A stretch of DNA of 63,254 nucleotides, the filler included, from Fonticula-like sp. SCN 57-25 (lineage: Eukaryota), in NCBI GenBank assembly GCA_001724245.1. It is 10 parts of 10 records of this genome, joined end to end, with 100 filler letters (N's around TTAATTAATTAA, not from the genome) between each part and the next. Parts side by side here need not be neighbours in the genome. Positions count along the whole stretch, not along the records: positions 46,145 to 51,791 come from MEDX01000537.1; 9 more parts are not named here. The stretch is one strand, 5' to 3'. Numbering within the stretch: the first letter of the stretch is position 1; every line of letters starts with the position of its first letter. The notes below the pieces were generated by a model. The model worked only from the letters and a program-made list of their open reading frames with translations, was not told the origin of the DNA and did not search any database. Positions 7,436 to 61,697 of this stretch are shown here, one piece after another. The translations under genes and the position numbers were made by a program.

Positions 7436-9064
7436 TCAGAGGAGCACCTCGAGAGTGCACTCTGCGATTGGCCTGTTTGCGTCGACGAGCGAGCGCATCG
7501 TGTCGCGCACCTTTGCGAGCTCGACGTCCGACGGCCCCCAGAGCCTGAGCACGGCCGACGAGTGCTGGTCGTTGCTCGGCGCAACGTGCAGCTCCTCGAC
7601 CTCAAAGTCGCACGGGCTGTCCACGGCGAGGTCGAGCAGCCTGTTGAGGAGCGCCTTGTCAAAGAGGTGTCCCTGGACGCGGAAGGCGATTGTGGGCCGC
7701 GCGTCCTCCTGGAGGTGGCTGACCTCGGCGACGGCGGCCATGGCCGCGGCGGCCTCGTACTCTGCGAGGGCGGCGCGCGCGCGCTCAGCCGCGTCCTTGA
7801 CGGTCGGGTTGTCGGTGCCCTGCACGACAAAGGTGGACGACGAGGAGCGCGGCCCGGACGCGAGGCGCATGAGGACCGAGTCGACAAGGTCCATGTTGAG
7901 CGAGCGCTTGTCGGCGAGGTTCTTGATCTTGGTCGTGGCGGCCTTGATCTGGTCCTCGGAGAGGTCGAGCCCAAGCTGCGTCGCGCGGTTCTGCATCGCG
8001 TTCCAGCCAGTGAGGCGGTGCGCGAGTTGGATGCGGCGCTCGACGCCAAAGTCGGCAGGGTCAATCACCTCGTACGACGACGGGTTCGTCATCACCGCCT
8101 TGGAGTGAACGCCGGCCTTGTGCGTAAAGGCGGCGCTCCCGGTAATGTAGTTGTTGAACGGAATGCTCACGCTCACCGCCTGCGCAACGTACTTTTCAAG
8201 GTGGCGGATCAGCGTCAGGTCGTACCGGCCCTTGATGGCCTCCTTGTCAATCGTGTACATGCGGGCAAGGAAGCCGCCCAGCGGCGTGATGCCGTTGCGC
8301 TCGCCAATGCCAAGCACGGTTGTGTCAATGTGCGTGGCGCCGCCCTCGAGCGCCATCAGCGCATTCGCAATGCAGCAGCCAGAGTCATTGTGCGTGTGGA
8401 ACTCGATCCCGGTCGACGGGCGCACAACGCTGCGCACGGCCGCTACAGTGTGCAGAACCTGAGAGGGAGTCGCAATGCCAACGGTGTCGGCGACGCCAAC
8501 GCGATCGACGCCCAGCTTGTCGACCGCCTCGTAGATCCGCAGAATGTCGTCGAGGTTGCTGCGGAAAGAGTCTTCGCACGAGAAGCGGACTTCGAGGCCA
8601 GCGTCTTGTACAAGGCCAATGGCGCGGCGCGCGTCCTCTACAACGGCGTCAATGCCCTTGCCGTGCGAGTGCTTGGCGAGCAGCGGCGACGTCGCCATAT
8701 ACATGTTAATGCCGTGAACGCCCGTCTTGATGGCGATAGAAACGTCGTGCGGATGGCACCGCGTATGCGTCAGGATCTTGGACCGCAGACCGAGCCGCGA
8801 GATCGCCTCGCACTCCTTGGTGGCCTGTTCGCTCGCCGCGGGGTTCATCAGTTCAATGTAGTCAACGCCGATCCGGTCCAGCGTCGTCGCAATGTAGAGC
8901 CGATCCTGGTATGTGAACTCGCCCGTCGCAAATTGTTCGCCTTCCCGCAGCGTAGTGTCAACAACGGCAAAAGTGGGTAGCTTGCGCGATCGAGCGGCCT
9001 CTGCCGCAGCGCGGGCAGCGCTTTGTACTGATCCTACTGTTGATGCGAGCCCTCTCCTCAACAT
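7436..9064 (-). CDS. LYS20: Homocitrate synthase with mitochondrial-type presequence and C-terminal LKR/SDH-interdomain (ACT-like) extension
   Basis: DTTLREGEQ, HTHND, GIGERNG and AFTHKAGVHSKAV..NPSSYE motifs of fungal-type HCS. Arg/Ser/Ala-rich N-terminus. Tail contains QGHLFDKALLNRLLD. Confidence 0.92.
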   Translation of the reverse strand: MLRRGLASTVGSVQSAARAAAEAARSRKLPTFAVVDTTLREGEQFATGEFTYQDRLYIATTLDRIGVDYIELMNPAASEQATKECEAISRLGLRSKILTHTRCHPHDVSIAIKTGVHGINMYMATSPLLAKHSHGKGIDAVVEDARRAIGLVQDAGLEVRFSCEDSFRSNLDDILRIYEAVDKLGVDRVGVADTVGIATPSQVLHTVAAVRSVVRPSTGIEFHTHNDSGCCIANALMALEGGATHIDTTVLGIGERNGITPLGGFLARMYTIDKEAIKGRYDLTLIRHLEKYVAQAVSVSIPFNNYITGSAAFTHKAGVHSKAVMTNPSSYEVIDPADFGVERRIQLAHRLTGWNAMQNRATQLGLDLSEDQIKAATTKIKNLADKRSLNMDLVDSVLMRLASGPRSSSSTFVVQGTDNPTVKDAAERARAALAEYEAAAAMAAVAEVSHLQEDARPTIAFRVQGHLFDKALLNRLLDLAVDSPCDFEVEELHVAPSNDQHSSAVLRLWGPSDVELAKVRDTMRSLVDANRPIAECTLEVLL

Positions 9065-9186
9065 CCCCGTAAAATGGGCGCGGCAAAACCGGGCAAAACC
9101 GTGAGTGAACGTGAAAAAGTGGTCTTACGAAGTGACAAAAATGTGATGGGTTCAAAAGATAAAAAGTTTGTGTTTGCTTTGTGATT

Positions 9187-9259
9187 GGGGACGTAGCTCA
9201 TATGGTAGAGCGCATGATTTGCATTCCTGAGGTAGGGGGATCGATACCCTCCGTCTCCA
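9187..9259 (+). tRNA. tRNA-Ala(UGC)
   Basis: Cloverleaf with acceptor GGGGACG/CGTCTCC including G3:U70, D-arm GCTC/GAGC, anticodon TGC (one T-C mismatch in the stem) and T-loop ATCGATA typical of eukaryotic Ala. A T5 Pol III terminator follows within ~10 nt. Confidence 0.93.
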
Positions 9260-9584
9260 CTTATCTTTTTGTTCTTTTGTCGCCTCCTTGCCAGGCGACA
9301 CTTTTTGCTATACACCGCAGCGTCATACTGGCGTCGCTATGCGCCGCTTCTTTCGCACATGCACGCGGCATGCACTTCGCGCGAGAGAGCGGGGCTAGCA
9401 AAGAGGAAAAGTGTGATAGGAAAGGTATGCTATGATGATGACATGAGAGCCGTTGAATCGAGGCCAGACCGTTGCCGAATTTAGTCACAGGCACGTGCTA
9501 TTGTTTGGGACAACAAGACGGTCGCCGACGGGCATCGAAGGACGCGGGAGGATCGGCTACTGCTTCCTGATCGCTACAGCCTCC

Positions 9585-28756: not shown

Positions 28757-28856
28757 NNNNNNNNNNNNNNNNNNNNNNNNNNNNNNNNNNNNNNNNNNNN
28801 TTAATTAATTAANNNNNNNNNNNNNNNNNNNNNNNNNNNNNNNNNNNNNNNNNNNN

Positions 28857-34406: not shown

Positions 34407-34623
34407 GCCGCGACTCGATGCGACTGGTTATTTGAGCCTCTTTTCCCCTCTTTTGCTTGCTGTTCTCATTGTACTTGCTTTTAATTGTGTCGCCGGACAA
34501 CAAATAAAAAATTGGTCCGATAANNNNNNNNNNNNNNNNNNNNNNNNNNNNNNNNNNNNNNNNNNNNTTAATTAATTAANNNNNNNNNNNNNNNNNNNNN
34601 NNNNNNNNNNNNNNNNNNNNNNN

Positions 34624-36739: not shown

Positions 36740-36881
36740 ATCCGTCTTTGTCAAGGGGGAAGCCGTAGATCAATGAGAGTCTATCGAGGTCTACGTTGCC
36801 GACAAACCCTATTACACAATTAAACGCCGCGTCGGCCTTGGTTGGCGCGGCAATTTTTGCGGACCCGCAAATAGTCGGGTC
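36740..36881 (+). ncRNA. U4atac-like minor spliceosomal snRNA
   Basis: 5' CCGUCUUUGUCAAGGGGG is complementary to the U6atac segment UCCCCUUGACAAGGAUGG. K-turn stem-loop CGUAGAUC-AAUGA-GAGUCUAUC-GAGGUCUACG; UUGCCGAC stem-I element; 3' hairpin 36826-36851; Sm site AAUUUUUG at 36852-36859; terminal hairpin GACCCG/CGGGUC. Ends approximate. Confidence 0.85.
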
Positions 36882-41202: not shown

Positions 41203-44200
41203 TAGGGATGAGTCCCGGGAACTTTTGGAGTCCCGCGGGACGTCCCGCGGGACCGCCCAGATCCGTCATAGTCCCGCGGGACTGCTATGGGTACTATGAG
41301 CCGTATCACCCGTATGATGAGCACTATGATGATGGCCTAATATGGAATACTGTACTGAATATATATGCATACTAGTAACCTACAGATGAATATTGGCTTA
41401 GGTGTGACGTACGTGTTAACGAAAATAGCAGTCCTTACAAGCGTATGGAATTTCACTAGTAGGATAATCATGGTTATATCAATAGAGTATCACGATTCAA
41501 GAAAACTACTTACCGGAGGATAATACAAGAGATGCCTCAGCGAGGCTCAAAGAAAGGCGGTTTCTGAGGCGACCGGTTACAAGACCGGCCGCCGAGAAGA
41601 GCCTTTCGGCGGAAGCTGATGATGCATACATACATAAAAAATGTTGAACAAGACTTCTAATAGTGGGATGTGTAAGTGATGAATTTCGAGACCACCAACA
41701 CAAGGGGTCAAACGCATCCGAGTCGGACATCTCGCGTGATGCCCCAATATGGAGGTAGTCTTCCAAAATGGACGTCGCTCGAGTTGACAGCGACGCTTCC
41801 TGATTAATTGGGGGCTCGTCGTCTCCAAAAAGGTCTCGCCATCGATTCAGCCGAGCGTCTGACAAGTCCCGCTTGCCGGCTGGCAGCGGTCGGAAATCGT
41901 TCTCTCGAGGCGGGGTGGTGCCATTTGAATGGCCCACATCCGTGCTCCGCTCGAGCTCACCGACTAGCAACAGTCGCACCGTGTCCTTGACGTTCTCGAA
42001 GAGGCCACTAACCAGCAGCTTCGGCAGAACCTTGATGTAAAGTGGACACAGCAGTGACGCACACAAATAATGGATCGCGTTGGATGAGGCTGGACTCGAA
42101 CGCCTGCCAGTGTGCGGCTCGTTGAAAATGCGAAGAGAAGTCGCTGCTTCTGGGAAGTAGTGCGCGAGGGCCTCCACCAAGCGTTCTGAAAGGGCGCCGC
42201 AATTGTTGGTCAAGCCGGCGCTCTTGAGGCGGCGCAGGCCGGAAACTAGAATGTGAATTTCCGGGATGACTTCGCCGATGCTTGTTGATGCTCTTGAGAG
42301 GACCGACGTTGATCTTTCCGCGAGCTCCAACACTTGGACAAGGTTCGTTGCGTCCTTGGCGACGGCCTCCCATTCATCATAGACTTTCTTAAAGTCGCGG
42401 CGCATTGTTTCCAGCTGGGGATCCAATCCGTCCGCGTCCGGCCGCGCTGCAACCGCGACGTGCTTAACGAGGTCCTGAAAACTCTGCAGCATATCGCTGA
42501 TTTGAGGCTGGATGAGGCGACGGAGCATAAGTAGAGAACTGTTCCACCGTGTCTGAACGTCTAAAACAAAGCCCAGCACAGGTGCTTGCTTGCCCACCAA
42601 CTTGTACTCCTGAACGAGGCGGAGATAATAGAGTCGCTTGGGACTGACGCGCGCCCAGGCGACAAGTTTTCTTGCCGCATCGATGATTGCCTCGAGCGGA
42701 GGAGAGTAGACATGTTCGGGGCGGTCCAGATCGAGGAGGTCCACGGACGATTGGTCATCCGTTAGCTCAATCTCGACCACGTCGGCATCGAGGTCCAACA
42801 GATCGGACACCTCTTCATCGTCTTCATCGGGGTTCTCCGGGTCCCTCGGGGCTATTGGAACTTCCTTGCCCGACAACGCCAACTTGATGGCGAGCTGTAA
42901 CCGGTGTGCAGCACAATAAAAAAATAGAACGTCTGGCTCGTCGATGCTTTGATCGGAATCCTTCTTTAGAAGGAGCGTAGCCTTTTTGCAGTTGGCCGCG
43001 GAATCGTGCGTAAAGGAAACCGTAGGACGAGGCGCGCCAGCTCGAACCTTGCTAAGACCACGTTCTTTCATGATTGTCTTAAGTTGTAAGGCAATTTCCG
43101 CAGCTGTGTGCGGCGGCGGGCTCAGCCTGAAAGCAAGGACGATCGGGCACAAGGTGAAGAAGGGCGTGACAAATCGAGCTGTGACACCTAGAATAGGCTG
43201 TTGGGCATCCGACGTCCAATGATCGAACGCCAGCGCCATCCCCCGAATGTCGACGGCGTCCGCACACCACCTATTGAGACTGGCATTCGCCGCCTCCCGC
43301 GTCTTGGTCTTGAGGGCCTCCGTTGAGGGTACGTCATACGTCGAATTGAGCAGGGCGAAAACAGGCACAAGATCGTTCACCAAAGTGAAAGGACGGTGCC
43401 CCTTGGCCAACATTTCCACTAGCGCATCTGTGACCGCCGCCTTGCTCGCCTCGTTGAGAATACGAGGGGTATGTTTGACTTGCGTGTCCAACGTCGATTG
43501 TTTCTTCTTGTCACTCGGCTTGGCGTCCGGCGCGGGGCTTGCGGCGGTGATACTGTGGTTATTCCGAAGATGTTTGTTGACCCCGGACGTCGACTCACTG
43601 ATGCCGAGATGAAAGGTAGCTTCGCAGTACTTGCACTTGAAAACATTGACAGTGCTGGTGCCGACGGTATGCCGCCGCCAGTGGCCGTTGCCCTCCGTTC
43701 TAGGGATTTCCTCCGTGGTTCCAGTCCCGGCGGTCAGGAGCCTTGTCCGCGACGTCGGGCTTGACGGGGAGGATAGCGAAAGAGTCGGAGATCCTACCGG
43801 CGATGCGTCTGTAAAACTCAGCCGCCTCAGAGTCGGTTGAACGGCGGCAACTGTCCCGTCTGCCGCCCGGGGTTAGTAGTGGTCTGACGCATTCAAATCA
43901 AAATGCACACCGATTTGAGTCGGCGCAGCCTCAGCAGCGGCGGGGGCGTTCCCAATGATAACCAAATCTGGCTCGTCCACCCCCTCCTGATCCAAATTGA
44001 CGACACCGGCAGAGCGCATCGGCACCGCATCGCGGTAGTTCGAGATTGACGGTGCGGAAGAGCCCGCCTGCCCTCTAGCAATGGTGTCACTGCTGTCATA
44101 CACAAAGTCCACTTTACTGTTTTGAGTCCGCTGCCGCTTCGCCGACGTAGCCATGGCGATGATGGCGTCGATGGCGTCGAAGGCGGTCGACGGCGATTCA

Positions 44201-46044: not shown

Positions 46045-46144
46045 NNNNNNNNNNNNNNNNNNNNNNNNNNNNNNNNNNNNNNNNNNNNTTAATTAATTAA
46101 NNNNNNNNNNNNNNNNNNNNNNNNNNNNNNNNNNNNNNNNNNNN

Positions 46145-49100
46145 GAGTCTCGCCGAGCCGGTGCAGGACGCCTGGCTTTGGCGCTTCACCAACATCAAGC
46201 GGTACGTCTCCTTCGCAACATATTTCATTCTAATGGGCGCCTATAGTGTTATCCGTGCCGTTCGTGACTTTGATGCTCAAGGGCGCGATGCGCTGTCGAG
46301 CGAGCAGCTCCCAAACGCGCTCGCGATCGCCAAGGACGGCGATCTCGAAGAACTGCGCAAGCTCATCTCGTTGCTGCTTTCGTGCGCGGTGCAGTGCGAC
46401 GACAAGGAAACGTTTGTTGGCCGCATCCTGGCCATGGACGACTCGCTCCAGAAGGCGCTGATGCACAGCATTGAGCAGATTCAGAACCGGCCTGCCACTG
46501 CGGCGGCCGATGCCGAGTACGCACCCCGATCGCGCTCGTGTCTTGAGGTTTAATGATTTTGTCTTTGTCAGAACTGCCTTGGTCCATCAGTTTGACCGGG
46601 AAGCCAAGGAATTGACTCTGGCGTTGAGCGCGATTCGGTCAGAGTATGATGACTTGCAGGCTCTCCACAACCGGACGTCGGATCAGAAAAGCGAACTAGA
46701 ACGTGAGGTCACACAGCTTAAGCTTCAGCTTTTGCAGCAGGGCGGCGACAACTCGGCCGATCGCGTCCTGAAGCTCGAAGTGACTCGCTTGACGCAGGAA
46801 GTGTACGTGCTAACCATTGCCGCGTTCTTAAACTGACATTCGCCAGTGAACGGATGACGAATGAGCTTGTGGAGGCTACCGAGGAGAGCCAGCGGAAAGA
46901 CATTAAACTGGCGTCGCTTTCACGCCAAGCCGAAAAGGTGGACGAAATCACTCGTCGGGCATCCGACCTCCGCGACGAGCTCGACATGGCGCTCGCCGAG
47001 AACCAGTCGCTCAAAAAGTTTGAGGCGGCATGTAGCAAGCTGCGCGCTCGCCTCGAGGTGGCCGAGGTGGCCGAGCAGCGCTTGATGACCGTTCAGGAGG
47101 AGAATGGTCGTCTGACAGCTGAAGTGGTGCGCCTCGGCGACATGGTTGCGGAAACCGTGGTGCTTCGCTCCAAGATGAAGCTGTCAGAGACCCGCGTATC
47201 TCTGCTGGAAAGCGAAAACGCGCGCATTCAGCGTGAGCGTGATGATTTAGAGATGCGGCTGCTCAAGTCGCCGACGCGCCAAAGCCACGATGGGCCGCAG
47301 GACGACATGCACAGCCTCGCGTCCCCGCTGGTCTCGGGCGAACTGCGCGAGAGCGGCAACGGCTCTGCTACAGAGTCGTGGCAGGCGGCGACGAGCTTGT
47401 CGCTGGAGATGGACAAGGACCGCATTTCGCAGCTGCTAAAGTCGGTGAACTCGCTCGAGAAGGCAAACGCTCAGCTGAAGCAGCAGAACGACGAGTTGAA
47501 AGCGCTCGGTGCTGCGAACCAAGGCTCCTCTGACCGTCCGTCAAATGGCGACTCTGCCCCGTCGGTTAACCCCGATGTCCAAGGCCTCCGCGACACCGTT
47601 GCGACACTCACGGAATCGAACCGACTGCTGCAGGCAAAGGTGGCCGAGCTGCAGGCCGATGTGAGCCGCGGCTCGCTTGACAAGGAGGAGGTTTCGCGGC
47701 TTCGCGATCGTCACCAAAAGGAAATTGCCGAATTGGAGGACGAGATCAAGAGCTGGCGCGATCAGGTTGATGCGCTGACCAGGGAGGCAAAGCAGCTTCG
47801 TCGCACTTCGGATGAGTCATCGCGCACCGTTGCTGAACTGCAGGAGGAGCTTGTTACGCGTACTGCCGACTATGAGCTCTCCGAACGCAAGCTCAAGGCC
47901 AGGCGCGATGAGCTTGCCAGTGCCAAGGCTCAGCTGCAGGAGCTGCAGCAGGAGGTTGAAAACTCGTCGCAGGAGCGCCACAAGCTTGAAACCTCGTTGG
48001 TTGATGTCCAGCTTCAATTGCGGCAGGCAAAGAGTTTGCAGCAGGCGTCCGCGGCCGTTAGCGATGCCGCGGCGACGAGCAAGGACGAAGACGCGCTTCG
48101 CGCCTTGCTTGAGGCCTCGCAGGTTTCGCTTCGTGAGCGCGAGGCGGAACTGAGCCAGCTCCGCAGCGATATTCGCCTCGAGGTGTCCTCTGCGGAAGCC
48201 GCGCAGCAGCGCATGGCGCGAGAGTTGGCCGCCGTGTCGGCAGAATTGACCAAGATCAAGGAAGAGCTCGCTGAGGCTGAGCGCGCGCGCGACGAGTTTT
48301 CGGCGACGGCGGTGCGCCTTCAGCGCGAAGCCAAGCCTCGCGCCGCGGAGCTTACGCGTCTGCGCGCTCGCGTGGACGAGCTGGAAGCGGAGCGCGACAC
48401 GCTTGCCGACGGGAAGCGCGCGCTGGAACGTTCCCTGCACGACAGCGAGCGTTTGTTGTCCCAGTCAAAGGACGACTGCGCGTCGCTTGAGCAGAGAATT
48501 GAGGTAGAGCGCCAGGCGGCGGCGAAGGAAACCGCCGCGGTCAAGGAGACAATGGAGGCCACCATGGCCGACCGGCTGGACGCCGCTGCAAAGGACGCGG
48601 CTTCTCGCCTCGAGCTCGCCGCCAAGGAACTGTCCGCCACCAAGGACGCCTCTGCTCGCGAATTGGCGGCCATCAAGGAAGCGGCCGAGCGCGAATTGGC
48701 GATTTACAAGGAGGCATCGGCCAAGGAGCTTGCCGCGGAGAAGCAAGCCTCTGAGCGTGAGATTGCAGTGTTGAGGGAGTCGGCAGAGCGCGCCGCTCGC
48801 ACCGTGGAAGAGCTGTCCGAGGCAAAGGAGGCGTTGGCAAAGGCAGCTGCGTTGGCGAGAGCCGATGCCGACACTGCCCTCGCGCGCCAGCGTTCTGCTA
48901 CGTATGTCGACAGCGAAACCCGCCCTTCTCCCACGGAAGCCGCCGCGGACTCTAGTCACGATGCTTCCTTGCTCAATGCCAAGATTTTCGACCTGCAGGT
49001 GGCGCTTAACGCTTCGCAGAAGGAGGTTGAGCAGCTCAAGCAGGAGAATGCGACGCTGCAAGCAGAGGTACGCCACGGATCGCCGCCGATTTCTTGTGCT

Positions 49101-50031
49101 AATCCGTGATTAGCTTGCCGAACTTCGCAAGGAGTTGGCGACTGCCAATGGGGCGCGTTCCCAGGTTGAGCAGCTGCTGTCCGTGTCTGAGACCGCGCTT
49201 CGCATTGAAACGGCCGCCAAGGAGAGCCTGCGCGTTCAGCACGATGCCCAGCTCGAGAGCCTGCGCGCCCAGCAGGAGGCGCAGGTCCGCATCATGCGGG
49301 CCGAGGCCGACTCGACGACGCGCCAGCAGATTGAGCAGCTCCAGAGCACCGCCGAAGCGCAGGTGCGCAGCGTTCGGGCCGAGATGGAGGAGCAGATGAA
49401 GGAGCGCATCCAGGGCATGAAGGACAAGATCGACGTTCAGGAAACGCTTCTCCGCGAGCGCGAGGAGCGGCTAGCAGACCAGCGCGCGCAGCTTGACGAA
49501 TATCGTTCCTCTGCCGCCGCTGCGGCTGCCAAGAGGCTGCGGTCCGTGAAGCGCAGCGATAGCGCGGCCGCCCTCGGGGACTCTGTCCGGTCCGCTTCCC
49601 AGAGCCAGCTGTTGGCCTCTCCGTCGACCACGTCGGAATCCGCGGCGGCGCCCGCCAGCACGGCGTCCCCCGCCCCCAAGCCGGTGTCAAAGTCGCTGCC
49701 TGCGGCTGACCTGGCTGCCGCCTCGGCAAGCGTCCAGGAGACAGAGGGCGGCGCTGATATGAGGCCACGCTCCGTGTCGGCGCGCGCGCCGCCGCCGCGC
49801 GTCATTGACTTTTTCGACCTGCTCGAGCAGGTGCAGGGACGGACGATGGATGACCAGTCGTACGTCGCGAAGCCGTTTGACGCAGCGAGCCAGGCTTCGT
49901 CGATTGAACGGCCGCCGTCAGAGGCGGAGGAGAAGAAGGGTGGCCTCTTGCGCTCGTTCAGCAAGCGGGTGCGTTCAATTCGCGTGTCCAAGAAGAAGGA
50001 GGGCGTGGATAGCGATGCGTCGTCAAAGTAG
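46145..50031 (+). CDS. Hook-domain long coiled-coil protein with C-terminal GoLoco-like motif, 5' truncated
   Basis: WLWRFTNIK..PNALAIAKD..ELRKLISLLLSCAVQCDDKETFVGRILAMDDSLQKALMHSIEQI (Hook domain); ASDLRDELD (Hook/Girdin-type); ~900-aa coiled coil; DFFDLLEQVQGRTMDDQS. Confidence 0.8.
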
Positions 50032-57855: not shown

Positions 57856-60800
57856 ATGAGCTCGAGCTGGGAGCAAGCTTGCCTTAAGCTGCTTGACCAC
57901 CTCGAGTCGAATGCGGGCCACACGTCGGAAAAGGTGTGTTTTACTTTGTTGATTGCATTGAACGTCGAAAATTCACATGACTAGGTCAATGTGCTGCTCC
58001 GTACGCTAATTGCGGCCCACGAGCAAGATGCGCAGGAGACGAACCGCCAGCACCAGGCGTTGGAAGATCGTTTCAATGTTGTGGAATCGGAGAGGCTTGC
58101 TCAGATTGCGGAAATGAAGCAGCAACTTGCGGATGAAAACGCTCTTCGGGTGCGCACCGCTGGGGAGTTTGAACACAAGACCAAGCAGCTGCGCGAATGG
58201 ATTTCCACAAAGATCAGCCATTTCGAGCAGCGCAGCATCAGCGAAGCACAGCTGTTGGCAGCGTCCCAGCAGGAGGCGACCAAAGCCCTTGCCGGTGCGC
58301 CGCATAACCTTGTCACCTCCGTCGCCGCGCGTTGTACTTACGAAGCGGTAGATTTGCGGGCGCTGACGGACGAGCGCGATCGACTCAGCGCATCGCTGCG
58401 TACGCAAGAGGCGCGCGTCGCCGAGCTGGAAGCGCTGCGCGGGTCTGCTTCGGCGCCCAAGGCCCCGACTGGTCTCCCGCTCCCGCCTGCGCTGCTGCGT
58501 GCTGCGTCGACGGCAGCCTTGCCGCCGGCCTTGACCAAACCGCCGGCCGCGATCGCGCCCACCAACATGTCGACGATTCACCAGCTCACGGCCGACGTTA
58601 ACATTCTGCGCCACGAGCGCGACATGCTAAAGGACGAGTTGAAGAAGGCCAAGGAGCAGATCGGCTGGCAAGCCGAGGAGATTGAGCAGCTGCGCACTGC
58701 TCTCCTGACGGTACCGACGGACGGTGGCGAGCCGCCGGCAAGCGTTGGGGCTCATTTGCCCTCCTCGGGCTCTGGGTCGTCCGTTTTGGACAGCAACGGA
58801 TCGGCGGTGGACCGCCCGATTAAAAAGGGCGCGCACATGGTGCGCCCTTCGTCGACGAGCGTGATGGTGCATCCGGCCGCCAAGAAGAAGGACAAGAAGG
58901 CTAGCCGCGCCAGTAAGACCGTCAGCGTCTACAATGTGAACATGGCTCGCCAGCCCGTGTTGGAGCGTAGCGGCTACCTGTATAAGCAGGGTGGCAGCGT
59001 CAAGTCGTGGAAGAAGCGCTTTTTTGTCCTCAAGAATAGTAGCCTCTACTACTACAAGACGGAGGAGGACAGCCGCGAGAGCGAAGCTCTCGGCTGCATC
59101 TCGCTCCGCGGAATGGTGAAGGTGTCCAATGGTGTTCAAATGGACACCGACCCGAAACCCAACATGATTTCGATCACGACGCTCACCCGCGTCTACTACC
59201 TCAGCGCGAGCAAGGAAGAGATTATGAATGAGTGGTACGATGCCATCTCGGATTCGATCAAGCTCGCCAGCGTCTCGCCGAGCGTCGTGCAAACCGCCAA
59301 AGAGGACGGCTCTCTTGTGCAGGGTTGGCTGGTGAAGCACAAGCGCGGACTCAGCAACTCACGCTGGGCAGTGCTCAAGCCCCGCGAGCTCCTCTTTTTC
59401 AAGACGGCTATTGTACGCAGCCCCATGCCAAAATCCTGTCGTTTGTGACACTAAATTGGCGAGTTTAGGACATTGAGCCGATTGCGCGCATCCCGCTGAA
59501 GAATGTGTATGGCGTCGAGGTCGTCAATGCAGAGGATGAATCCGACAACGAAGAGTTTGCACGCTTCTCGGACCAGCTGCTGGACTCCGACGGCTCGCAG
59601 CAGTCGCTCGACTCGCACTTTGCCATATTTGCGCACATGGAGAAAGACGGCCGCCGCATGGAGAGCGCTCATTTCCTGGAGGCCCTGACTCCAGAGGACA
59701 TGGAACGTTGGGTGTTCCACTTGAACCTCATTTGCCTCGATCGTGCAAGCAAGCTAAACGACAACGAGCGCGCCATGAAGATTCTGCTCAACGAGGCGGC
59801 GTCGGGGAACACCGAGCCCCCAGTGTCCCTGTGCTTTAGCAAAACGATCTCTGCTCCGCTCACCTCCCTCTCGTCGGACGAGCTGAGGGCCGAGGCAGTG
59901 GAGCTGTTCAAATGTACGCTGGCAACCATGCCCTTTCGCTATACTAACTCTCTGCGCGATAGCCGTCTTCATCTACTCGAGCACGGTGATTGACCCGCGC
60001 GCAGTCGACTATCACATTGCGCTTGCGCAGTTGCTCTGTCGCTCGGCGCTGAGCCGCGTGGAGCTGCGCGACGAGCTCTTTATCCAGCTTGTCAAGCAGA
60101 CAACCAAGCAGCCGTACCCCAACAGCGCGATGACGTATCAGACGTGGCAGCTGATGGCCATTCTCTGCGGCGTCTTCATCCCTGTCCGCCCGATCATCCA
60201 GCAGTATGTGACTGCGCACCTGCGTCGGTTCGCCCCGCTCGACGGCGCGGTCGGCCGGTACGCCGCGTACACCCTTCGTGTTCTTGATCATGAGCTTCGC
60301 GTCGACCCCGCTGTGCTCGGACCGCGCACCCTTCCGCCGTCGCGCACCGAGATCCTGGCCATCATGAAGCTCGAGACGCTCGCGCAGGCCACGTCCACCC
60401 CGCTTCAGATTGACGTGTTCCTCCCGTCAGGCGCGTCCGTGAGCGTGGAGCTGGCTGTCTGCGACCCAGTTCATTTCCTGCTTGACCGCGCGACTCGCAG
60501 CGCCGCCATGTCGCACCGCGTCACCAAGGCGTCCCAGTTTGCCGTCTTTGCCAACGATGGTGCTCATGCAGACATCAGCGTCCGCCTCATGCCCAGCGAG
60601 CGTCTCACCGACGTGCTCTCGCGCTTTGACGTGGAGAAGCGCACGACCAACATGAACGATGGGAGCGGCAAGGACGCCGCCCGCCGCCACGCGTCCTCTC
60701 TGCGGTTTACCGTGCAGCAGTGGCAGTTTTTGCCGGAGAGCGGAGCGTTTGCCCCTGCATTGCAGCGCGCGCGCGCCGTCAATTGCCTTCCGCTTGACAT

Positions 60801-61547
60801 GGTGGACATCCAGGACGTCGGCCCGGCATCGTCGTGGTTTAGCCCCGAGAAGGCGACGGTGTTTGAGCGTGTGATGCTCTTTTCGCTCGCGAACGATGCA
60901 ATTGTGCACAAGCGCATTCCTGTTACACAGCGCGCTGCTGCCGCTCTCGCCGCGTTGCAGGCGCAGGCAGAGTTTGGTGACTACAGGGAAGGCTCGGAGA
61001 CTGTCATCCATGCGGTGCAGCGGTACTGCCCCGAGGACCTCGTAGTTGATGATATTTCAGTTGCCACCGACGGTGCTGCGGGCCCGCTCACCCAGGCCGT
61101 CCAGACAAAGTGGGCGGCGCTCAAGGGCACTGCAGCCGCCACGTGCATTACCGCGTATCTGCACGCGATGCGGAACGCGCCGCTCTTTGGCGCGACTCTC
61201 TTTGCTGTCGAGCCTCTGTCGCCCAGTAGCGAGCTGCCCTCAAAGATGTTCCTCGCAATCTCGCACGATGGCCTTGCCGTTGTCAACAGCGATATGATGA
61301 TCACGGCCGTCTTCAAGTGGAAGAACATTGTTTCGTTTGCTGACTCGGCCGACAGCACATTCGCAATCTTCATAGACATGGCGCCCATCTCCCAGACGGC
61401 GCAGAAAATGATCTTTAAGACCCCTCGTGTACGCGTGTTTTTTACACGTTTTTGGTTAATTCTAACATTCACACACAGCCGAGACAACTGTCGTCGCTTA
61501 TGCATGCATACATCAACGCAGTTATCAAGTCCAAAATGGATTCCTAG
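57856..61547 (+). CDS. Coiled coil-PH-PH-MyTH4-FERM protein (PLEKHH/MAX-1 family)
   Basis: SGYLYKQGGSVKSWKKRFFVL (PH1), GWLVK (PH2), LRDELFIQLVKQT (MyTH4), LQAQAEFGD and PLFGATLF (FERM); 4 introns. Confidence 0.9.
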
Positions 61548-61697
61548 ACTTTCCTTACAATTTATGTGGCCTATTTCGGAGCCACGTGCCTAGTTAAAGA
61601 TTGCTCGAGTCAAGCAGCCGGTTTTAGATCTCGTTCGCATTGCATATGTTGCACGAATGGTGTAAATGTTACATTATATAGAATCAATACAACAGAA

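Follow-up and report, generated by a model that had tools for sequence, protein, structure and literature searches.

The window analysed here is a stretch of 63,254 bases from the eukaryote Fonticula-like sp. SCN 57-25 (assembly GCA_001724245.1), and the gene under study lies on its plus strand at positions 46146–50031. It encodes a Hook-family protein with a GoLoco-like peptide in its C-terminal tail. The window strings together about 11 unrelated contigs of a fragmented assembly, which are ordered by descending size and divided by ten spacers according to the count of the analysis, and the Hook gene is located on the contig at 46145–51791 (MEDX01000537.1). Judged from the sequence, this contig carries the final 3.9 kb of the gene, and the predicted product comprises at least 1,231 residues. 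Because the contig begins at 46145, the 5' end of the gene is cut off and there is no upstream context. A BLAST alignment of residues 13–97 with residues 74–162 of Daple places approximately 60–70 N-terminal residues off the contig. Splicing of five plus-strand frames yields a coding sequence of 3,696 bases, corresponding to 1,231 residues and a stop codon; the gene has at least five exons. The following features were assigned to it (pLDDT, predicted local distance difference test).

46146–46201, plus strand: exon 1, partial; first exon on the contig, with the gene severed at the contig edge
46202–46246, plus strand: intron 1, 45 nucleotides (nt), GTACGT...TCTAATG...TAG
46247–46516, plus strand: exon 2; C-terminal half of the Hook domain, positions 69–145/146 of the HOOK_N profile
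46404–46484, plus strand: segment corresponding to helix H of Hook3, which binds the dynein light intermediate chain (LIC), as deduced from the PDB alignment
46517–46571, plus strand: intron 2, 55 nt, GTACGC...CAG
46572–46802, plus strand: exon 3; the helical rod starts here
46803–46846, plus strand: intron 3, 44 nt, with GTACGT, GCTAACC and CAG
46847–49067, plus strand: exon 4, 740 residues; segmented rod, seven long helices predicted by AlphaFold2
49068–49113, plus strand: intron 4, 46 nt, with GTACGC, GCTAATC and TAG; joins the rod to the tail exon
49114–50031, plus strand: exon 5 with stop codon; helix of residues 2–155, a disordered part rich in Ser, Ala and Pro, two short helices, TAG
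49807–49860, plus strand: GoLoco-like peptide DFFDLLEQVQGRTMDDQS; residues 1158–1175 of the spliced product, in the last exon
49924–49989, plus strand: basic amphipathic helix; exon-5 residues 271–292, block pLDDT 64–77

The four introns all open with GTACG, have a length of 44–55 nt, and their removal restores one reading frame. Their GC content (0.44–0.54) is below that of the exons, and most of them contain a CTAAC- or CTAAT-like site shortly upstream of the AG. The initial annotation of this DNA, which was made from the sequence alone, had proposed that an intron at ~49068–49123 links the Hook-domain part of the gene to its tail. By sequence logic the link holds: a frame of 795 codons and the last exon, an open frame of 305 codons, are connected by a GT..AG intron. 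Its 3' end had to be corrected, as the intron stops at 49113 rather than at ~49123. The GC content at third codon positions (GC3) is 0.77–0.83 in frame through the tail and 0.44 after the stop codon at 50029–50031.

There are five copies of the word GTACG in the gene, namely four at the intron donors and one at 49860–49864, which abuts the 3' side of the Ser codon of the GoLoco-like motif. This fifth copy of the donor word raises the question of whether the gene model is wrong, such that the tail exon stems from another transcript or a splice at 49860 drops the basic tail. We consider such an error very improbable. Exons 4 and 5 are only 46 nt apart, and the intron between them has the same donor, CTAAT branch-like site and AG acceptor as the other three; furthermore, the helical rod runs on across the junction of both exons in the AlphaFold2 prediction. 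Position 49860 was rejected as a donor: downstream of it, the same frame maintains a GC3 of 0.77 and a codon log-odds score of +0.40 per codon, compared to −0.75 and −0.89 for the other frames. We read the fifth GTACG as a coincidence; an alternative isoform without the basic tail may exist. Since the motif Ser is encoded by TC plus any base, it would be retained even with splicing at 49860.

The N-terminal part of the product was identified by means of profile and structure-database searches. Over its first 135 codons, the coding sequence present on the contig matches HOOK_N (PF19047) at profile positions 69–145/146 with 55.3 bits (E 8e-15), which is above the gathering cut-off of 23.5 bits and in agreement with the Hook_N profile match that had been anticipated. 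The 89 residues of exon 2 match the PDB entries of Hook3 (6b9h and 5j8e, E ~3e-8) and Hook1 (1wix, E 5e-8). The Hook match is thus established; that the protein begins with a Hook domain, as the initial annotation had put it, is extrapolated from half a domain. When exon 2 was used to query a collection of 5.8 billion proteins, 36 of the 270 word-sharing candidates were below an E-value of 0.001, and all 36 carry PF19047. Among the matches listed, the named ones are fish Daple (CCDC88C) and the others are unnamed Hook-domain proteins; the identities are 37–40%. Because the word filter governs which families can surface in this search, these matches do not make the Hook protein a Daple orthologue.

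In Hook3, residues Q147 and I154 of helix H are each essential for binding of LIC1 and for motility, and a patch formed by I136, I139 and M142 also contributes, as described by Schroeder and Vale (PMC4970328). Hook3 residues Q147, M151 and I154 correspond to Gln, Met and Ile in the protein studied here, and I136, I139 and M142 correspond to Val, Ile and Met. The surface for the dynein light intermediate chain is preserved in this alignment, and binding is predicted. We are highly confident that the gene encodes a Hook-family dynein adaptor.

According to single-sequence AlphaFold2 models, the Hook domain is followed by ~950 residues of a segmented helical rod. In exon 4, helices were predicted for residues 2–139, 175–221, 243–273, 279–408, 414–565, 576–686 and 695–739; the breaks between them are short and of low confidence. 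In exon 5, residues 2–155 form a single helix with a pLDDT >90. The long coiled coil proposed initially agrees with these helices insofar as a long rod is concerned, and from the models we infer that the rod packs as a dimeric coiled coil. Its predicted length would suffice to span dynactin. Pfam returned just weak coiled-coil-type matches for the rod.

Beyond residue 155 of exon 5 the predicted structure is disordered except for two short helices. The tail of 161 residues contains 30 Ser, 26 Ala and 13 Pro. Its elements follow each other in the order GoLoco-like helix, acidic stretch and, ~20 residues on, the basic amphipathic helix, which may be a membrane or regulatory element. The final 45 residues contain 12 Lys or Arg compared to 7 Asp or Glu, in line with the polybasic tail described earlier.

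The codons at 49807–49860 read DFFDLLEQVQGRTMDDQS and are in frame with the 305 codons of the last exon. Both this peptide and the basic tail belong to one predicted polypeptide with the Hook domain, as had been claimed. A loose regular expression for the GoLoco core had one match in the six frames of the window, which is this site. The peptide matches the GoLoco motif at FF.LL, at the central Gln (motif position 9) and at MDDQ, that is, at every conserved position except the Arg of the DQR triad. This Arg is replaced by Ser, encoded by TCG at 49858–49860, precisely as the initial annotation had stated. In the AlphaFold2 prediction, FFDLLEQVQG (exon-5 residues 233–242) is an isolated short helix amid disordered sequence, and block 231–240 has a mean pLDDT of ~64. 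The resulting layout of a helix followed by an extended segment fits GoLoco.

A search with the Pfam GoLoco profile PF02188 yielded 15.8 bits (E 0.0094) for the exon of 305 amino acids and 18.8 bits (E 0.0011) for a tail of 94 amino acids, where E-values are relative to all 24,736 Pfam models. The initial annotation had called the peptide a match to the GoLoco consensus and had made the proposal depend on a PF02188 hit. A profile match exists, at 15.8–18.8 bits compared to the gathering cut-off of 25.1 bits, and such a sub-threshold match neither contradicts the proposal nor clears it. The resemblance to the consensus stands at all conserved positions but one; what does not stand is the Arg and the score demanded by Pfam. 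GoLoco is the sole family that Pfam returned for the 94-residue tail at E≤10. Likewise, phmmer gave a single PDB match at E≤10, to the LGN/GPSM2 GoLoco region (4jhr, E 0.57), in which DFFDILVKCQGSRLDDQR is aligned with DFFDLLEQVQGRTMDDQS. In the ESM Atlas, the top three clusters for the tail are all PF02188, with scores of 0.77–0.79 and 170–182 shared features.

How a lone motif scores can be judged from a true multi-GoLoco protein, P0002, to which Pfam assigns 198.9 bits over 11 stretches. This value corresponds to ~18 bits per motif, and a lone genuine motif can therefore fall below the whole-protein cut-off of 25.1 bits. A local profile was compiled from 12 repeats of P0002; it is narrow and a poor substitute for the Pfam profile. 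With this local profile, an in-silico exchange of Ser for Arg added 6 bits, and the Arg alone would therefore probably not lift the Pfam score past the threshold. Based on the sequence, we regard the GoLoco resemblance as real and as statistically not decisive.

Relatives of the tail were sought in several collections. A phmmer search of 1.84 billion representatives with the tail yielded two matches, P0001 and P0002 (E 2e-5, six stretches). P0001 was rejected as a junk repeat. A homology search that allowed for longer proteins found no relative of the tail exon among 8,000 scored candidates. There were no relatives among 593 pattern matches (tail) and 294 pattern matches (Hook exon) in JGI metagenomes, and none among 525 in GTDB contigs with exon 4 as a query. 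Precomputed PF02188 matches are present in none of the 36 Hook-exon matches mentioned above. A near-identity search with exon 4 found only P0003, whose cluster has one other member, P0004. Both are products of the open reading frame at 46854–49109 from two ENA assemblies and are 99.9–100% identical to the window; they agree with each other in 750 of 751 residues, with a single Val/Ala difference. One copy of this reading frame is located on an ENA contig of 11,452 nt, which should hold the missing 5' end.

A number of these and further results weigh against G-protein docking by the tail peptide. Both PF02188 scores are below the gathering cut-off, and Ser occupies the place of the Arg to which the role in the GDP mechanism is assigned; this Arg has been proposed to stabilise the β-phosphate of GDP (PMC4660580, PMC12329598, in the passages on the motif). 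ESM Atlas scores below 0.9 are leads only by the calibration of the tool. With the local profile, the 161-residue tail reached 9.1 bits, which was also attained by 2 of 20,000 composition-preserving shuffles. In the six frames of the window, the motif ranked second of 1,423 pieces (105,523 residues) with 8.0 bits and E 0.16, and was outscored by a fragment of eight residues elsewhere. The search of 1.84 billion representatives revealed no tail orthologue, and the match to P0002 was rejected as independent support because its score is inflated by repeats. PF05622, the Hook coiled-coil/cargo region, was absent from exons 4 and 5 at E≤1 and from exon 3 and the 94-residue tail at E≤10. No Gα signature was found in the 63,254 bases of the window. 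Finally, Pfam-based surveys confine GoLoco to metazoans and choanoflagellates (PMC3971589, as far as its survey passages go), and a choanoflagellate survey from 2025 applied PF02188 with a cut-off of 1e-5 (PMC12716839, in its description of the search). A motif of 16–19 bits would have gone undetected in such threshold-based surveys.

It is quite possible, albeit short of an even chance, that the Hook-family adaptor is real whereas the GoLoco likeness arose by chance in a low-complexity disordered tail, and that attachment would occur via the basic helix or an unrecognised partner. The sub-threshold score, the missing Arg, the rank behind an eight-residue fragment, the lack of a tail orthologue in the protein, JGI and GTDB scans and the reported restriction of GoLoco to choanozoans all favour this explanation, and scanning many windows yields a few matches of such strength. 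However, an E-value of 0.0094 over 24,736 models corresponds to ~4e-7 for PF02188 alone, and to ~1e-4 expected matches in the whole six-frame window. Chance would moreover have to account for the conservation of FF.LL, the central Gln and MDDQ, for the helix-then-extended layout, and for the fact that Pfam, PDB phmmer and ESM Atlas, three search methods, give GoLoco only for the tail.

A functional short linear motif might also have a partner other than Gα, and could latch intramolecularly onto the N-terminal region or bind another GTPase or a scaffold. Dynein adaptors are commonly autoinhibited via contacts between their N- and C-termini, as described for NuMA (PMC11623564, in the part on autoinhibition). 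The sole PDB match 4jhr is an autoinhibited structure of LGN comprising its tetratricopeptide repeats (TPR) and GoLoco motifs, and the GoLoco motifs of LGN bind its own TPR domain; the absence of the nucleotide-contacting Arg would likewise be in accordance with another partner. Against this stands that Pfam searches of the 1,231 residues revealed neither TPR nor any other domain that could be recognised as a receptor, and nothing positive favours any specific alternative partner. We deem this explanation improbable.

For the whole of the observations, a Hook-family dynein adaptor with a Gα docking tail is our best explanation, held with somewhat less than even confidence. Docking of Gα by the tail peptide, taken by itself, is a tentative candidate function, and it is this step that limits the confidence in the whole. 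In the proposed mechanism, the N-terminal Hook domain together with the first coiled coil would recruit dynein-dynactin via the light intermediate chain, the rod would dimerise, and the tail would anchor the dynein complex at the membrane or cortex. The basic amphipathic helix would bind acidic lipids, and the FFDLL helix would dock in the switch II/α3 groove of lipid-anchored, GDP-bound Gα in the manner of GoLoco helices. Because the Arg that contacts the GDP β-phosphate is replaced by Ser, the peptide is expected to tether rather than to act as an effective guanine nucleotide dissociation inhibitor (GDI); its GDI activity would be low or absent. In favour of docking, the only two citable Hook-domain systems tied to Gαi are linked to it through a tail motif (the Gα-binding and activating, GBA, motif of Girdin/Daple) or through a GoLoco partner (NuMA-LGN), as far as the consulted sections of the literature cover them. 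In a full-text search for "GoLoco" combined with "Hook domain", no Hook-domain protein with a GoLoco motif of its own was reported. GoLoco docking is advanced here as a hypothesis on one sub-threshold motif from one uncultured organism.

Cortical spindle pulling and G-protein-guided transport in animals use multi-protein bridges from membrane-bound Gα to dynein. We judge it rather unlikely that a dynein-activating Hook domain and a GoLoco-type Gα docking peptide are indeed united in a single polypeptide. If they are, the animal Gαi/LGN/NuMA chain would be collapsed into one protein, which would parallel Girdin/Daple with a different motif. Hook-domain rods would then have gained Gα handles more than once (GBA in Girdin/Daple, a GoLoco-like motif here), and a natural one-chain bridge would provide a minimal system for reconstitution. 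If, in addition, the host is neither an animal nor a choanoflagellate, this would be the first GoLoco-type motif outside these groups, pointing to an older origin or to convergent evolution on a scaffold of the same type. Surveys that apply the Pfam threshold trace GoLoco to the common ancestor of choanoflagellates and animals, and this dating would be reopened. Even then, the protein would combine known kinds, namely Hook adaptors with Gα handles and GoLoco peptides, and would not constitute a new category. If the resemblance is due to chance, the gene of this uncultured eukaryote simply encodes a Hook-family adaptor of considerable length.

The surroundings of the gene and the layout of the window comprise the following features, given in window coordinates.

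46045–46144, no strand: spacer of the form N44-TTAATTAATTAA-N44; the DNA to its left is a different contig
10809–10908, 16618–16717, 22415–22514, 28757–28856 and 34524–34623: contig spacers
40288–40387, 46045–46144, 51792–51891 and 57525–57624: further contig spacers
50246–51547, minus strand: convergent gene for CDK5RAP3 (PF05600, 161 bits), UFMylation pathway

All joints between contigs are spacers of this N44-TTAATTAATTAA-N44 form, and adjacency across a spacer carries no meaning. The CDK5RAP3 gene bounds the Hook gene on the 3' side, with a gap of 214 bases from stop to stop. The DNA of the window is eukaryotic, given its GC content of 51–66%, its spliced genes and a gene for the U4atac small nuclear RNA. 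The latter, a component of the minor spliceosome, is located at 36741–36864 on the plus strand (58.1 bits compared to a gathering score of 53), and the organism accordingly keeps U12-type splicing. In the ESM Atlas, the neighbours of the CDK5RAP3 product belong to mixed phyla; of ten open frames of the window looked up by exact sequence, three are present in the protein collection, as ENA or Logan records. Families represented in the window are CDK5RAP3, Rad21, MyTH4-FERM, PH, hAT transposase, signal peptide peptidase, homocitrate synthase, myotubularin, RasGEF_N and EH domain. The homocitrate synthase gene (7436–9124, minus strand) encodes HMGL-like and HCS_D2 domains, and its best PDB match is the S. 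pombe enzyme 3ivs with 457 bits; its C-terminus matches the LOR/SDH N-terminal region (PF04455), an unusual extra domain. This enzyme points to lysine synthesis via the aminoadipate pathway. A frame of 788 codons at 41506–43872 on the minus strand ends with an hAT-family dimerisation domain (40 bits), its exact product occurs on three ENA contigs, and it is probably a DNA transposon. On the last contig, a MyTH4-FERM frame (59887–61593) and a PH-domain frame (57985–59448), both on the plus strand, may belong to a single gene for a motor or scaffold protein. The sole tRNA of the window is a tRNA-Ala (TGC) at 9187–9260 on the plus strand.

Among known systems, Girdin and Daple (CCDC88A/C) resemble the Hook protein in that a Hook domain at the N-terminus is combined with an extended coiled coil of great length and with a short Gα-binding motif, a candidate one in the Hook protein, within a divergent C-terminal tail (PMC4760084, in its account of their architecture). 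The Hook half is 37–40% identical to fish Daple according to the homology table, and 36–37% according to BLAST. Relative to the ~1,400-residue N-terminal region of CCDC88 proteins, the BLAST alignments with Daple cover only residues 13–97 in two of three proteins and residues 13–272 in one of three (P0005, 27% identity over 290 residues); no similarity to the three Daple proteins was found past approximately the first 270 residues. In contrast to the GoLoco-like peptide, the motif of Girdin/Daple is of the GBA type, with guanine nucleotide exchange factor activity and the signature [LIMV]-[TS]-[LIMV]-x-[DEQ]-F-[LIMV] (PMC4760084, in its definition of the motif). A GBA motif was ruled out for the Hook protein, as this pattern had no match in the 1,231 residues and was present in all three Daple controls as VTLEEFL or VTLEQFL. 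Furthermore, the Hook protein is shorter, with at least 1,231 plus ~60–70 missing residues compared to 1,220–1,997 for Daple.

In the Gαi/LGN (Pins, GPSM2)/NuMA (Mud)/dynein system, a Hook-domain coiled-coil protein acts on dynein, as predicted for the protein studied here, and GoLoco holds cortical GDP-bound Gα; NuMA uses its Hook domain for LIC and reaches the cortex via LGN and Gαi (PMC11623564, in its outline of the pathway). Among solved structures, LGN's GoLoco region (4jhr) comes closest in sequence to the tail. LGN and NuMA are two proteins joined by TPR-NuMA binding, whereas one chain is predicted here, with NuMA being compared by its described features. The motifs of LGN are arranged in tandem and possess the DQR Arg, in contrast to the single motif with Ser. 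With HOOK1-3 and fungal HookA, the protein shares the residues of the LIC-binding helix H and a Hook domain with an immediately following coiled coil; it differs from them in having no PF05622 match, a rod of about twice the length and an unrelated tail. The canonical GoLoco/GPR motifs of RGS12/14, AGS3/LGN, Pcp2 and Rap1GAP1b, which are recorded only in choanozoans, differ from the peptide in that it contains Ser instead of the DQR Arg and scores below the Pfam threshold. The peptide has in common with them the FF.LL helix, the central Gln, the M-D-D-Q sequence, the disordered setting and the succession of a helix and an extended segment.

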